NCBI GenBank assembly: GCA_964480775.1
Contig: CAYZRF010000010.1
Span: 32,945-64,944, forward strand
DNA length: 32,000 nt
Direction: 5' to 3'
Source: an uncultured Nitrososphaerota archaeon
GTDB taxonomy: Archaea > Korarchaeota > Korarchaeia > Korarchaeales > Korarchaeaceae
Shown here: positions 1-3,505 of the stretch, in pieces
How positions within the stretch are numbered: position 1 is the first letter of the stretch
How the letters are laid out: every line of letters starts with the position of its first letter
The notes under the pieces: generated by a model
Told to the model about the DNA's origin: nothing
The model's input: the letters and a program-made list of their open reading frames with translations, nothing else
Databases searched by the model: none
Program-made: the position numbers and the translations under genes

Positions 1-534
1 GAAAGCGAATACTTCAGCGCAAACATGGTTATAAGGACTGGTACTGCTCTTAGTAACGATGTGGGTTTAACGTATACCGAGATGGCAGAACTCTTGCCTG
101 AGATAATAGATTATTCAAGAGAGAGGGGCATAAAATTCGTCTGGTATTCTCCTATTCCCTACTGCATATTCAATCCAGTAGCACATGGGCTTGGATCCAA
201 ATCTTGTGCTGCTTGCCATGGTCTCCTCTCTATTTCTCCAGAAGGGGAAGTTTTGCCATGCAGTTCATTCTCTAAAGGGGTTGGAAACTTGTTAGAGCAA
301 AAATTTGAAGAAATTTGGTTTAGCAGGGTTGCAAAGTATTGGAGGGAAAAGAAGTTTGTTCCTCCTCCCTGTAAGGGATGCGAGCTTGTCGAAATTTGCT
401 CGGGTGCTTGTCCTTTGTATTGGGATTCTGCTGGAAGTTTTGAGGAGATAAGCGGGAAGAACTCACATTTCCGCTACTTAGTTTGGAAGATGGAAAGAAG
501 GTTATTTGGAAAGGTGTTTGGAGTTGGCAAGTAG
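1..534 (+). CDS. Radical SAM enzyme, C-terminal SPASM domain (5' end lies outside the window)
   Basis: The frame is open from base 1 (ESEYFSAN precedes the Met listed at 25). It carries the SPASM signature C-x9-G-x4-C (CHGLLSISPEGEVLPC, 214-261), then C-x2-C-x5-C-x3-C (CKGCELVEICSGAC, 370-411). The CxxxCxxC radical SAM core would be upstream of the window. Confidence 0.8.
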   Translation, partial: ESEYFSANMVIRTGTALSNDVGLTYTEMAELLPEIIDYSRERGIKFVWYSPIPYCIFNPVAHGLGSKSCAACHGLLSISPEGEVLPCSSFSKGVGNLLEQKFEEIWFSRVAKYWREKKFVPPPCKGCELVEICSGACPLYWDSAGSFEEISGKNSHFRYLVWKMERRLFGKVFGVGK

Positions 535-1723
535 AGGGCTCTTAGTAATCTCTATAAGCGCGCTTGACAGCAAGCTTGCTGGTTTGTCTTTGAAGATTAG
601 GGAATGTGCTAGAAGACTAGTATCTCTGGAAAATAATGCAAAGAAAAAGTACGACCTTCTACTTAAGTACTTGGATCAGCTAGAGGAGAAATGGGTTTCA
701 AGACTTACTAACAAAATGGAGAAGGGGTGTGGTAGGCTGTGCGACGACATAAATTACAGGATTGAGATGGAGAAAAGAGCAATAGAAGATAGGATGAAGG
801 GAATCAAAGAGGAGTTAGCAAAGTTAGACAAAGAAGTTGGAGTAATACATAAGAAGCTAAGAAGAGAAGCTGAGAAGATGAAGAAAGCCAACCCTAGGCT
901 GAATGAAAAGGAGGAAAGACTTAAGGCAAAGAGAAGAAGACTTTCAAGGAAGAGGGGGGACCTTCTCGTTAGGAAAGCCAGGCTATCAAGGGGAATCATC
1001 AGAAGGATAATCAACAGGAGACTAATCAGACGTTTAGATTGGGAAATAAAGGAGCTTGACAAAGAAATAGAGGATGTGGATTTAAAGATTTACAAAGTAA
1101 GGATGAAATGGCAGGACTTGAAGAAGAGATGGGAACAGGAGAAAAAAGAGGCTGAAAAGGCTCTGGCAGAAGTTTTCGTTAGGATGGCCGAACTTAAACA
1201 AGAGCTCATTTTCTACCGGGATAATCTGGATAGATTGGCTCTAGAAGGGGGCATAAAGAGATTTATCTGGGATTTGACCGATGGAAATGCCGATCCTGAT
1301 GCTTATGATGATCCCTTGATTTCAGAGTGCTATCTTGAATTTAATAAAGCTGCAGAGGAAAAGAGAAAGTTAGAAGAAGTGATAAAGGACCTCGCCTTTT
1401 CGAAGAAAATCCTCATTGGTTTTGACAGAGGGATAAAGAGGTTTAGAAAGCCTCTTGGTGCATTAAGGGACGAAGAAAGTAGGTTCTCACAACTACCAAA
1501 GCTCAAGATCAAGTATCCCAAGGTACTTGATTCGATGTCCGCTGCTTTGGATAGGCTTTTGATTGCTATCGAAGAAGCAGAAAGAGACCCAGAACTCACT
1601 GCCAGGGCTATTAAGCCGTTATTTGAGGGCAAAGCACCGTTTAGCAGCGATCAATTGAAGAGCTTCTTTGATGAGATAGGAGACAAAGTAAGGCTTGCAG
1701 TTGACAAACAGTGGGGGAGATGA
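506..1723 (+). CDS. Highly charged coiled-coil protein of unknown function
   Basis: Long ORF with a K/E/R-rich, heptad-like sequence (EKRAIEDRMKGIKEELAKLDKE..., RRIINRRLIRRL). I recognise no family motif. The start is uncertain: the first in-frame start is TTG 506, overlapping the SPASM gene stop at 532-534, and other in-frame TTGs lie at 518, 524, 584 and 590. The gene ends 6 nt before the next gene. Confidence 0.6.
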   Translation: MERCLELASRGLLVISISALDSKLAGLSLKIRECARRLVSLENNAKKKYDLLLKYLDQLEEKWVSRLTNKMEKGCGRLCDDINYRIEMEKRAIEDRMKGIKEELAKLDKEVGVIHKKLRREAEKMKKANPRLNEKEERLKAKRRRLSRKRGDLLVRKARLSRGIIRRIINRRLIRRLDWEIKELDKEIEDVDLKIYKVRMKWQDLKKRWEQEKKEAEKALAEVFVRMAELKQELIFYRDNLDRLALEGGIKRFIWDLTDGNADPDAYDDPLISECYLEFNKAAEEKRKLEEVIKDLAFSKKILIGFDRGIKRFRKPLGALRDEESRFSQLPKLKIKYPKVLDSMSAALDRLLIAIEEAERDPELTARAIKPLFEGKAPFSSDQLKSFFDEIGDKVRLAVDKQWGR

Positions 1724-1729
1724 TGTGAT

Positions 1730-3505
1730 GTGAAAAGGGTCTTTTCAGCTGCTCTGGCTTTTGTATTTCTATCTTTAGTGGTTATCTCTGGAGTTGTTTA
1801 TCAGGTATCTTGCCAAGAAGTTACGATTGAGAAGATCATGGTTTGGGTTGTCTTGAAGTCTGACGGCACAATGGAGGTCGAATACAATCTTACTTTCCTA
1901 GAACATAGTTCTCGGGATAGAATAAGGAAGTTAGGCCCTTTTGAAGAAGGCCACAGCATAAAGAGCGCTTTCATAGTTCACGATTCAGATGTTCGTGCAG
2001 TAGAACTCTCTGAGATTGAAGATGGGCTCTACTCCGTGTTATTTGGTTATAAAACTACGTCTGGAGAGCAGTACACTGTGAGCATTAAGTACAGCATAGA
2101 TAGGCCGGTAGTAACAGAGCAAGAGATGTTCGGGGAGCCATACTCTATATTCGCCTGGGCTCCTTTCCAATGGAGTTTACCTGTGAATAACGAGACTGTC
2201 ATGATAGTGATGCCAGTTGAACTTCCTTCAGATGTAACTAAGCCTGAGCAAATAACTCAAGAGCTTATAGACTCCTTAGGAATAGGCTATGGAGATCTCA
2301 CTGATTACAGGTGGTCATTCTATCCGACTGTTGATGAGACCACTGGTAAGAGCTGGCTTTCCATCTACTTATCTAAAACCAGCTTGGAGCCATACTATCA
2401 CTTTGTGATTGAACTCTACATTCCAAGCAAGTACTTCACTTTAGGTCCCTCTCCAACATTTCCGCCCCCAGTATCCCCGACAGTAACGCCTCCTGGTTTG
2501 ATTGCCTCGTACGGCTGGGTAATAATAGCAATATCGGCTCTCATAATGTTTGGATCCTTTCTTGCGTATGTAAGAGGAAGAGAAAGGAGAAGAAGGGTTC
2601 CAAGATATGAAGCACCAGAGATAGAGATAGAAACCTTCGAAGTTCCCGAGAAAGTTGCAGATCTTGACCCTGCAGAGGCAGCCATGCTCGTATCGTCTGC
2701 TGATAAAGTCATAGCTCTTATAGCTCTTAGCTTGATGGAAAGGGGCATCATACAGATGACTTCGGTTAAACCACCAAAATATTCGATTAATGACCGAGAA
2801 TTGGAGAAGAGAAGAAAAGAGCTGAAGAAATACGAGTTAAAGTTCATAGAAGCCATTAGAGATGATGGTTCAATTGATGAAGAGGAACTCAGATTGATTT
2901 TGAAGGAGGTTGCATACAGCCTTAACGAAAAGGCGTGGGATGCAGATATAGAGAAAACTAGAGAGAGATACAAGGAACTAGTTGAAGAAAAATGGAAAGA
3001 GCTTGAGGATCGACCTAGGGCTCAAGAAAAAGTTGATTACTGGAATGATAACTGGCCTTGGCTTATAATTCACACAAATTCGCATAGAAGAGCTAGAGAC
3101 GTTTTCGTACCAACAACCCCAGGAGAAAAAGTTAGAATAAAACCAAAGCCCGACAGGAGACCTTTTCCAGTAGTGACCCCCGTTGAGAGAGGTGCGAGAA
3201 CAATCGTGGTCGGGATAGAAGACTTCGCCAATAGGGTAGTTAGCACAATAGAATCCATAAGCAAGAACGTTGTTGAGGGTCTAGAGAAGGTCGCTGAAAA
3301 AACGGTCGAATCGGTTGAAAAGGCTGGAGTAAAAGAAGCTTGTTACTCGGCATGTGTAGAACATGATGCTTGTCATTCCGCATGTGTTCACGATGCTTGC
3401 CACAGTGCGTGCGTTCACGACGCTTGTCATTCGGCTTGCCACAGTGCCTGTCACTCTGCGTGTCATTCAGCTTGTCACTCTGCCTGTGTGTCAGGCTTTG
3501 AGTGA
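1730..3505 (+). CDS. DUF2207-like single-pass membrane protein with a cytoplasmic C-terminal Cys/His repeat tail
   Basis: GTG start. It has a signal-like N-terminus ([21 protein letters not shown]). The ectodomain begins with a pattern typical of DUF2207 N-domains ([26 protein letters not shown]). A P/T linker ([17 protein letters not shown]) leads to a TM helix at about 2498-2572, followed by [11 protein letters not shown] (positive-inside). The cytoplasmic segment [33 protein letters not shown] resembles the DUF2207 C-terminal module. The last ~55 aa are a Cys/His repeat. Confidence 0.8.
   Translation: [591 protein letters not shown]
3338..3490 (+). repeat. In-frame 12-nt (ACHS) and 27-nt (ACHSACVHD) periodic coding repeat
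   Basis: Translation: [52 protein letters not shown], with 12 Cys (each preceded by Ala) and 10 His. The five consecutive ACHS units use different synonymous codons (Ser tcg/agt/tct/tca/tct, Ala gct/gct/gcc/gcg/gct). Confidence 0.9.

Follow-up and report, generated by a model that had tools for sequence, protein, structure and literature searches.

A radical SAM/SPASM enzyme linked across archaea and bacteria to a membrane protein with a conserved H-x-A-C repeat tail, its proposed substrate

Research on maturases of the radical S-adenosylmethionine (radical SAM) and SPASM type has dealt almost entirely with their production of cofactors or of natural products that are small peptides. The enzymes of sactipeptide and ranthipeptide synthesis (SCIFF/CteB, PapA/PapB, SkfA/SkfB and AlbA) join a RiPP recognition element (RRE; RiPP, a peptide made by the ribosome and modified after translation) to a radical SAM and a SPASM domain and act on Cys-rich sequences. 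Their substrates are short, free and diversifying peptides, among which the freyrasin of the PapA/PapB pair has a repeated C-x3-D unit. QhpD, which acts on QhpC, and anSME are SPASM enzymes that mature protein subunits, the modifications of QhpC being Cys thioethers. In this study, a 32,000-nt stretch of DNA from an uncultured archaeon of the Korarchaeota (contig CAYZRF010000010.1, positions 32,945–64,944; here called the window) was analysed with respect to the three same-strand open reading frames (ORFs) at its start (1–3505), which comprise a radical SAM/SPASM gene (its 3′ part), a coiled-coil gene and a gene for a membrane protein that ends in a repeat of H-x-A-C units. The evidence points to a dedicated maturase acting on the tail of a membrane protein that is itself large and conserved.

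The korarchaeal locus resembles the sactipeptide and ranthipeptide systems in pairing an RRE–radical SAM–SPASM enzyme with a Cys-rich sequence, but here the tail is invariant and carried by a membrane protein, and the enzyme scores far below the cutoffs of those families (AlbA 83 vs 850 bits, SkfB 77 vs 300, StsB 85–104 vs 625 and ScfB-like 20 vs 855; on the window fragment, PapB 18.6 vs 340). With QhpD and anSME it would share a SPASM radical SAM enzyme modifying a protein that keeps the modification for its function, as is proposed here; however, the window fragment reaches 16 bits against a cutoff of 453 for the QhpD type and 27 against 349 for anSME, and the architecture of the substrate is unlike. 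An experimental precedent for a repeat protein matured by radical SAM enzymes is provided by the antiphage HXS system, in which the effector HxsA is matured by HxsB/HxsC with HxsD (PMC13128918). The likeness lies in a repeat protein, not a small peptide, as the object of radical SAM maturation, in short-period His repeats and in the HxsC/HxsC4 scores of the present enzyme (80–105 bits), whereas the HxsC cutoff of 268 is missed (80–102 bits), the HXS repeat has a period of 3 (H-x-S) without Cys, and the localisation differs. No second radical SAM gene (HxsB partner) or HxsD-like gene is conserved near the cassette in the examined loci. Assignment to a defence system was rejected, as PADLOC gave generic matches alone (viperin-core for the radical SAM enzyme and SMC-like for the coiled coil).

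The class that comes closest in its repeat has been defined in silico. It is represented by two NCBIfam models, ‘tSAM_targ_Cxxx’ (TIGR04114) and ‘Cys-Xaa-Xaa-Xaa repeat radical SAM target protein’ (TIGR04117), and in newer Pfam by PF27846 (‘tSAM_targ_Cxxx_rpt’); the CXXX-repeat maturase itself is the subject of TIGR04115. As in that class, a period-4 Cys repeat stands beside a radical SAM/SPASM gene and is presumed to be its target; in contrast to the CYDS-type repeats of TIGR04114, the present unit, H-x-A-C, has His and Ala as invariant residues, and the target is the cytoplasmic tail of a conserved membrane protein of ~590 aa. Neither the window tail nor a bacterial consensus tail matches any NCBIfam model at E<=1, and no Pfam match is on record for the window protein. 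The highest score of any family member is that of P0127, a protein of the divergent subtype 2 described below, on TIGR04117 (14.4 bits, cutoff 50), and its precomputed PF27846 tag is ‘weak’; the positive control P0142, with CYDS repeats, scores 23.2 bits on TIGR04114 (cutoff 20). The top 25 NCBIfam matches of the archaeal and of the bacterial enzyme, which reach down to 67.5 and 71.5 bits, respectively, do not include TIGR04115; this speaks indirectly against membership in that maturase family. Cxxx repeats as radical SAM targets are therefore already curated in silico, while this family, with its H-x-A-C unit and membrane carrier, lies outside those models. The view of the initial annotation that no such system had been described calls for a qualification, as the generic class of Cxxx-repeat targets exists, although this family misses the TIGR04114 and TIGR04117 thresholds. 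A literature search on the motif, on DUF2207 together with radical SAM, on the Cxxx repeat and on TIGR04114/04115/04117 found no relevant paper, and in public annotation these proteins are called ‘hypothetical protein’ or bear a spurious name.

The tail occupies the last 56 residues of the membrane protein (536–591; window 3335–3502, + strand) and is proposed as the substrate on the strength of its sequence, identity, codon changes, grammar and rarity. It holds 12 Cys and 10 His, against 1 Cys and 6 His in the other 535 residues; at a Cys frequency of 1.2 %, 12 or more Cys in 56 residues would arise by chance with a probability of ~3e-12. Direct reading confirmed the 12 Cys, mostly in C-x3-C spacing, that had been noted at the outset (eight C-x3-C, two C-x4-C and one C-x5-C). 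Among 56 distinct tails, from which the grammar of the repeat was derived, the inter-Cys units are CHSA (373), CHDA (59), CVHDA (53) and CVHSA (12), with rarer others. Within units of four residues, His occupies position 2 in 97 % and Ala position 4 in 98 % of cases, and position 3 varies (S > D > G/H/T/N/Q); in longer units the additional residue (Val) falls exclusively between Cys and His, so that the invariant element is H-x-A-C. Per tail there are 7–18 Cys (median 11), and the terminal motif is AC-V-[S/G]. The variability of position 3 argues, as far as the aligned units indicate, against a side-chain-specific acceptor at that position and would leave Cys, His and Ala as the candidates for the chemistry.

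The tail is also the most conserved part of the protein, contrary to the possibility raised by the initial annotation that homologs might lack it. Comparison of the window protein with 52 bacterial homologs gave identities of 37 % in the ectodomain, 12 % in the transmembrane (TM) helix, 35 % in the cytoplasmic domain, 16 % in the linker and 85 % in the tail, and the tail identity of ~85 % spans Korarchaeota on one side and Chloroflexota/Armatimonadota/Spirochaetota on the other. The bacterial homologs are 34–39 % identical overall and end in a like repeat tail, while full-length korarchaeal orthologs are 81–83 % identical overall, with tails that are identical in all save locus L006. When 50 tail codons were compared with those of loci L004, L007 and L009, 28–34 synonymous and 0 non-synonymous changes were counted, whereas the 200 codons before the tail showed 68–76 synonymous and 37–48 non-synonymous changes; the codons for the repeated residues are scrambled both within and between genomes. 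Judged by these substitutions, the tail is under old, strong purifying selection on the peptide and is not a recent repeat expansion. Since the repeat is nearly unchanged across the archaea–bacteria divide, its exact sequence, presumably in a modified form, appears to be functionally essential. In L006 (4681–6417) the tail has an in-phase deletion of nine residues (HDACHSACV, two units), which indicates that the number of units can change while the grammar is kept.

Such tails are rare. An exhaustive phmmer search with the tail against 1.84 billion protein representatives returned 30 proteins at E<=1e-3, ~22 of which belong to the membrane-protein family, including subtype 2, whose membrane-protein bodies are 21–32 % identical to the window protein; the remainder are other low-complexity proteins or carry period-4 Cys repeats of an unrelated kind (CYDS, CETG). 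Short tail matches look like fragments of the same proteins, with the cytoplasmic KxWDCD..TR..Y motif. A stand-alone precursor peptide was not apparent among the 30 matches, nor was a conserved small Cys-rich ORF found upstream of the korarchaeal radical SAM gene. P0142, P0145 and P0132 carry other long period-4 Cys repeats (CYDS/CYSA reaching TIGR04114, and ~70 CETG/CEVS units in an 814-aa protein) and belong to or resemble the curated class of Cxxx-repeat radical SAM targets. A viral or mobile origin was considered in view of four IMG/VR contig matches (L176–L179) and rejected, these being off-frame translations of a phage gene for a 549-aa protein, in which a 12-nt repeat gives rise to PVTQ units; they are a caution for tblastn confirmation with repeat queries.

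The association of the tail with the enzyme is retained over large phylogenetic distances. Homologs of the membrane protein were recovered via radical SAM and locus scans, two tail-less partial homologs having given access to the first contigs that share the gene order. In archaea the order radical SAM > coiled coil > membrane protein was found in 12 loci, which answers positively the question, posed with the initial annotation, of whether the three genes co-occur in other archaeal genomes. Ten further archaeal loci (L004–L011, L013 and L014) have, as the window does, a β-CASP RNase gene (−), the three genes (+) in that order and an ABC importer (−). For bacteria, a genome scan with the radical SAM alignment yielded 77 loci, the ORFs of which were clustered; 66 contained a radical SAM gene, 61 a homolog of the coiled-coil protein, 58 the membrane protein and 44 a fourth gene. 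The bacterial order is membrane protein > radical SAM > coiled coil > fourth gene, mostly with overlaps or short gaps and in several unrelated flanking contexts, and ~86 % of the radical SAM-seeded loci have a tail gene. In every archaeal locus, and in 61 of the 77 bacterial ones, the radical SAM gene is followed by a coiled-coil homolog. The fourth gene encodes a protein of ~163 aa with two TM helices, a winged helix-turn-helix (wHTH)-like region and a CPxCG...CPNCG zinc ribbon. In one Anaerolineae clade (L015–L091), genes for GT4 and WecG/TagA-type glycosyltransferases lie upstream, and a gene for a ~660-aa secreted HExxH protein and a convergent SelA (selenocysteine synthase) gene lie downstream; these flanks are clade-specific and absent from the other contexts.

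Subtype 2 allowed the linkage to be examined from the side of the tail. A metagenome scan seeded with the subtype-2 membrane protein gave at least 440 confirmed stretches, and the reciprocal figures were taken from the best 80. Among the loci with >=1.5 kb of downstream sequence, a radical SAM gene was found in all 58 and stood immediately downstream on the same strand in 57. The order here is membrane protein > radical SAM > third gene, and the enzyme shares 41–45 % identity with its archaeal counterpart along the entire sequence, N-terminal domain included. The third gene, present in 55 loci, encodes a protein of ~318 aa with ~4 TM helices and a soluble domain, without a Pfam family and unrelated to the coiled-coil protein. 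As the third gene differs between the subtypes, the invariant core consists of the tail protein and the radical SAM enzyme. Linkage was thus seen in Korarchaeota, one Bathyarchaeia metagenome-assembled genome (MAG), Chloroflexota, Armatimonadota and Spirochaetota, in addition to the divergent subtype 2, so that the synteny with Cys-tail proteins whose absence elsewhere would have spoken against a connection is kept in three gene orders. That the reciprocal (58/58) and forward (~86 %) linkage hold in all three orders while the third gene changes argues for a direct functional pairing.

In the window, the enzyme is represented by its C-terminal 177 residues (1–534, +), frame 1 being open from nt 1 to the stop at 532–534 and the gene being cut by the window edge; features of the full-length enzyme and the upstream layout were therefore taken from orthologous loci, in which the protein has 471–475 aa. 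The fragment matches the SPASM models PF13186 (41.7 bits, cutoff 21.5) and TIGR04085 (48 bits, cutoff 27), and its translation shows the motifs C69-x12-G82-x4-C87 and C124-x2-C127-x5-C133-x3-C137, with Cys of the SPASM region at fragment residues 55, 69, 72, 87, 124, 127, 133 and 137, in agreement with the SPASM auxiliary Fe-S signature first ascribed to this gene. The 471-aa ortholog of locus L002 matches PqqD (PF05402, 34.5 bits, cutoff 23.4), Radical_SAM (PF04055, 100 bits) and SPASM (40 bits). In 15 full-length orthologs that are 53–82 % identical, the CX3CX2C motif (C133, C137 and C140) and seven SPASM Cys are invariant, and PqqD is precomputed on nearly all of 120 listed homologs. The ortholog has >3000 homologs at E<1e-20; Korarchaeota-labelled ones are 79–99 % identical, and >100 clusters from Chloroflexota, Anaerolineae and Armatimonadota are 52–56 % identical over the full length.

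No curated NCBIfam equivalog cutoff is reached by the archaeal or the bacterial full-length enzyme. The best sub-threshold match is AhbD, followed by PqqE, NirJ2, HxsC, the GeoRSP and ACGX radical SAM enzymes, StsB and AlbA, with scores of 117–149 bits for AhbD (cutoff 500), 116–138 for NirJ2 (cutoff 500) and 68–89 for Tes (cutoff 450). The nearest solved structures are all distant and comprise SkfB (the best PDB match), GDGT-MAS, PqqE and CteB (5wgg, residues 41–432), of which SkfB, PqqE and CteB act on peptides. By these profile comparisons the enzyme is an RRE–radical SAM–SPASM family outside the curated families, and not AhbD, NirJ, Tes or anSME. A SPASM family with a known non-peptide substrate, which had been named as the finding that would count against a peptide target, was thus not recovered: AhbD, NirJ/NirJ2, Tes and anSME are far under cutoff, and the orthologs carry PqqD/RRE.

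Two features were noted upstream of the radical SAM gene. Just before its korarchaeal start lies the DNA block AACCCTTAACATTTTCATTAAC.CT.ACC...TAATAGACATTGGTAGCACA (~6930–7000 in L004, with equivalents in L007, L009 and L013), which is kept while the surrounding intergenic DNA diverges and may be a promoter or a 5′ leader element. In L002 (QMVU01000110.1, a Thermoproteota MAG), a 233-aa protein is encoded directly upstream (234–935, +); it has ~20 hexapeptide repeats (CPTGxx) and a helical region and is anchored by a TM segment at its C-terminus. Present in none of the other loci, it may be either another Cys-repeat substrate or an unrelated protein of the cell surface.

The membrane protein (591 aa; 1730–3505, +) has a single predicted TM helix and is known from archaeal and bacterial orthologs. 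Hydropathy marks two hydrophobic segments, residues 1–29, a signal/anchor segment (nt 1730–1816), and residues 254–283, with no Lys or Arg counted before the second segment and six after it. AlphaFold, run on an 18-sequence alignment, places one TM helix at residues 259–284 (2504–2581), which is followed by the positively charged stretch, and is confident for an extracytoplasmic β-sandwich domain (31–232; 1820–2425; predicted local distance difference test (pLDDT) >90) and for a cytoplasmic α/β and helical domain (302–460; 2633–3109; pLDDT 79–96). Residues 462–591 have a pLDDT of 31–49, comprising the poorly conserved linker (462–535; 3113–3334; pLDDT 36–49) and the tail. Hydropathy, positive-inside charges and AlphaFold concur, so that an N-out/C-in topology with a cytoplasmic tail, as initially derived from the positive-inside rule, is supported by prediction, and the low pLDDT suggests that tail and linker are probably flexible and accessible. 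In Foldseek searches the ectodomain resembled ribophorin I/OST1 and domain I of the M1 aminopeptidases ERAP1/IRAP (E ~1e-8 to 1e-7); as modelled, its fold is generic, although OST1 has a like ectodomain–TM–cytosolic arrangement. According to the conservation profile, the most conserved motif outside the tail, ending in EAA, sits in the cytoplasmic domain.

This architecture recalls DUF2207/TIGR04222 membrane proteins, which are usually paired with LemA and have no known biochemistry (PMC12631010, PMC10457818). Both have a signal/anchor, a β-sandwich ectodomain and a TM helix, behind which lies a cytoplasmic domain containing an L.P.E.A motif; in contrast, a LemA partner is missing here, and an H-x-A-C tail and a radical SAM partner are not described features of DUF2207. 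Matches to the models are sub-threshold (PF09972 18.8 vs 24.4, PF20990 24.3 vs 33 and TIGR04222 24.9 vs 43 bits), those of TIGR04222 and DUF2207_C mapping to the cytoplasmic domain, and a bacterial member of the family likewise stays below cutoff on the DUF2207 models (14.6 and 23.9 bits). Domain order and topology suggest that the protein is probably a distant DUF2207 relative; of the earlier label ‘DUF2207-like’, the resemblance holds while family membership does not, all matches being under the gathering thresholds. A tie of DUF2207 to 5-thiohistidine was rejected, as the published authors themselves judge the DUF2207/LemA genes to be unrelated to that chemistry.

The coiled-coil gene (506–1723, +) stands between the two, its first possible start being TTG 506, which gives an overlap of 11–29 nt with the radical SAM stop depending on whether 506, 518 or 524 is used; alignments of orthologs suggest that the true start is TTG 518 or 524. 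The GTG start of the membrane-protein gene follows the coiled-coil stop at 1723 by 6 nt, so that the tight packing first reported for the unit (stop at 534 vs possible start at 506, stop at 1723 vs start at 1730) is confirmed in full. The product, of ~399–405 aa and with homologs in the other loci, is modelled by AlphaFold (pLDDT 89) as an elongated four-helix bundle with helices 17–73, 77–160, 171–259 and 270–326 (57–89 residues each). It has no family model above cutoff and no PDB match at E<1e-3, and from its model is probably a scaffold, not an enzyme.

Building on what was shown, namely the linkage of the genes, their domain content, the predicted topology and an extreme purifying selection on the tail, a course of events is proposed for the tail as substrate, for the chemistry, for the fate of the product and for its function. 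The membrane protein would be inserted N-out/C-in, exposing a C-terminal array of ~11–13 H-x-A-C units behind the flexible linker, and the RRE would dock the radical SAM enzyme on the cytoplasmic part of the protein. Radicals of 5′-deoxyadenosyl derived from SAM could then modify the units successively, with the SPASM auxiliary clusters holding the substrate. Cys-derived thioether cross-links are the leading candidate for the chemistry by analogy with sactipeptide and ranthipeptide synthases, which is a guess, and, as His and Ala are invariant, reactions at His or at an Ala C-H would be conceivable as well. The product would stay attached as a conformationally locked Cys/His array, probably with a metal or redox role at the inner membrane face, metal binding by the (modified) tail being plausible. 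The coiled-coil protein would serve as a co-translated scaffold, to which bacteria add the protein with two TM helices, wHTH-like region and zinc ribbon, while subtype 2 would use its protein with four TM helices instead. On balance, the RRE–radical SAM–SPASM enzyme probably has the tail as its dedicated substrate, which it would modify unit by unit in the cytoplasm and which would remain on the membrane protein. A further step, that the enzyme turns the dozen or so Cys/His units into a cross-linked metal- or redox-active rod, a membrane-tethered, protein-borne cofactor found from Korarchaeota to Chloroflexota and used by anaerobes for signalling or for electron or metal handling across the membrane, and not a RiPP-like product, is put forward tentatively, as a possibility with the odds against it. 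The idea of tail modification or cross-linking, with which the initial annotation began, has survived every one of its proposed tests that was run, the cross-linking part resting on analogy.

Several observations weigh against modification of the tail by this enzyme, or against particular forms of it. Subtype-2 enzymes align over the PqqD region, yet Pfam detects PqqD in them weakly (E=0.049); the top NCBIfam scores go to the tetrapyrrole-modifying AhbD and NirJ2, though far under cutoff; and the variable unit position (S/D/G/H/T/N/Q) disfavours an Asp- or Ser-specific acceptor such as that of PapB. Nine radical SAM-seeded bacterial loci with full flanks have no Cx3-4 repeat ORF within 7 kb; the linkage is thus not absolute, and in these loci the tail gene may lie elsewhere in the genome. 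A near-invariant ‘core’ shared across domains of life is moreover atypical for RiPP-like substrates and would equally suit a plain metal-binding tail. That the tail is just such an unmodified metal-binding or redox module (a Cys2His2-like array with Cys at i/i+4 and His at i+1/i+5), the radical SAM enzyme acting elsewhere or being served by the tail as a cluster or electron donor, nevertheless appears unlikely. Cys and His are classic soft-metal ligands and both are invariant, the strong conservation suits a structural metal site, and low AlphaFold confidence could mean folding upon metal binding; against this, linkage in 58/58 and ~86 % of loci holds in three gene orders, the enzyme has a peptide-recognition domain with no other candidate substrate conserved nearby, and an Ala that is 98 % invariant is left unexplained by metal ligation alone. 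The variant named in the initial annotation, a metal-binding module unrelated to the SPASM gene, is disfavoured by the reciprocal 58/58 linkage in particular.

In another proposal the tail is a RiPP-type core that the radical SAM enzyme modifies and that is then cleaved from a 535-residue membrane-bound ‘leader’ to be released, for example as a metallophore or a signal. Its near-identity across domains is unlike the diversity of RiPP natural products, and the conservation of the ectodomain and cytoplasmic domain suggests that the whole protein is functional. The C-terminal position behind a flexible, non-conserved linker, the fixed end motif (AC-V-S-x-F or AC-V-S-G-G-x-x), the RRE of the enzyme and the secreted HExxH protein that follows the cassette in one Anaerolineae clade would all fit release; however, the three types of cassette have no conserved protease or exporter in common, and the HExxH gene is clade-specific and its product has a signal/lipoprotein-type N-terminus while the tail is cytoplasmic, so that this outcome is regarded as improbable. 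Each successive Cys pair followed by His can also be read as CX3CH or CX4CH, which, together with AhbD and NirJ2 as the best sub-threshold matches, would allow covalent heme c-like or tetrapyrrole attachment sites, with an AhbD/NirJ-like enzyme installing or tailoring the cofactor of a membrane-tethered cytoplasmic redox wire. Cytochrome c maturation is extracytoplasmic whereas the tail is predicted to be cytoplasmic, a site every 4–8 residues is implausible on steric grounds, the enzyme differs from AhbD/NirJ in possessing an RRE and scores <30 % of the cutoffs of those families, and no heme-biosynthesis or Ccm genes are conserved near the cassette; such a cofactor role is accordingly given very little weight. 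Finally, low-complexity repeats are common and off-frame repeats do give false matches, as the viral PVTQ case illustrates, but coincidental adjacency of a drifting repeat or an off-frame artefact is effectively refuted by selection in frame (0 non-synonymous vs 28–34 synonymous changes), cross-domain conservation, extreme rarity in protein space and reciprocal linkage to the radical SAM gene.

The system is widespread, with the metagenomic stretches noted above, and common in Anaerolineae, and it is without functional annotation. Modification of the tail by the linked enzyme would give the DUF2207-like architecture a concrete, testable biochemical handle, and the substrate is short, repetitive and soluble when truncated, so that the chemistry is directly testable. 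If the modified tail does form a metal- or redox-active rod, it would represent a new class of radical SAM-built, membrane-tethered protein cofactor.

Beyond the three genes, the window contains a convergent ABC importer operon (3538–8170, −) encoding a TOBE_2 ATPase, a 634-aa double-length BPD_transp_1 permease and a binding protein of the SBP_bac_1/6/11 type. All korarchaeal loci have this operon in synteny, but their genomes are too close to one another for that to indicate a functional connection. The HypA-like zinc-ribbon gene that lies at 25665–26102 was considered as the window ortholog of the fourth bacterial gene and rejected, tblastn and HMM searches of the window having given weak, zinc-ribbon-only matches. 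It is part of a group at 24365–26896 that also comprises genes for an ArsA/GET3-like ATPase (−) and a Mrp/ParA-type P-loop ATPase (26099–26896).

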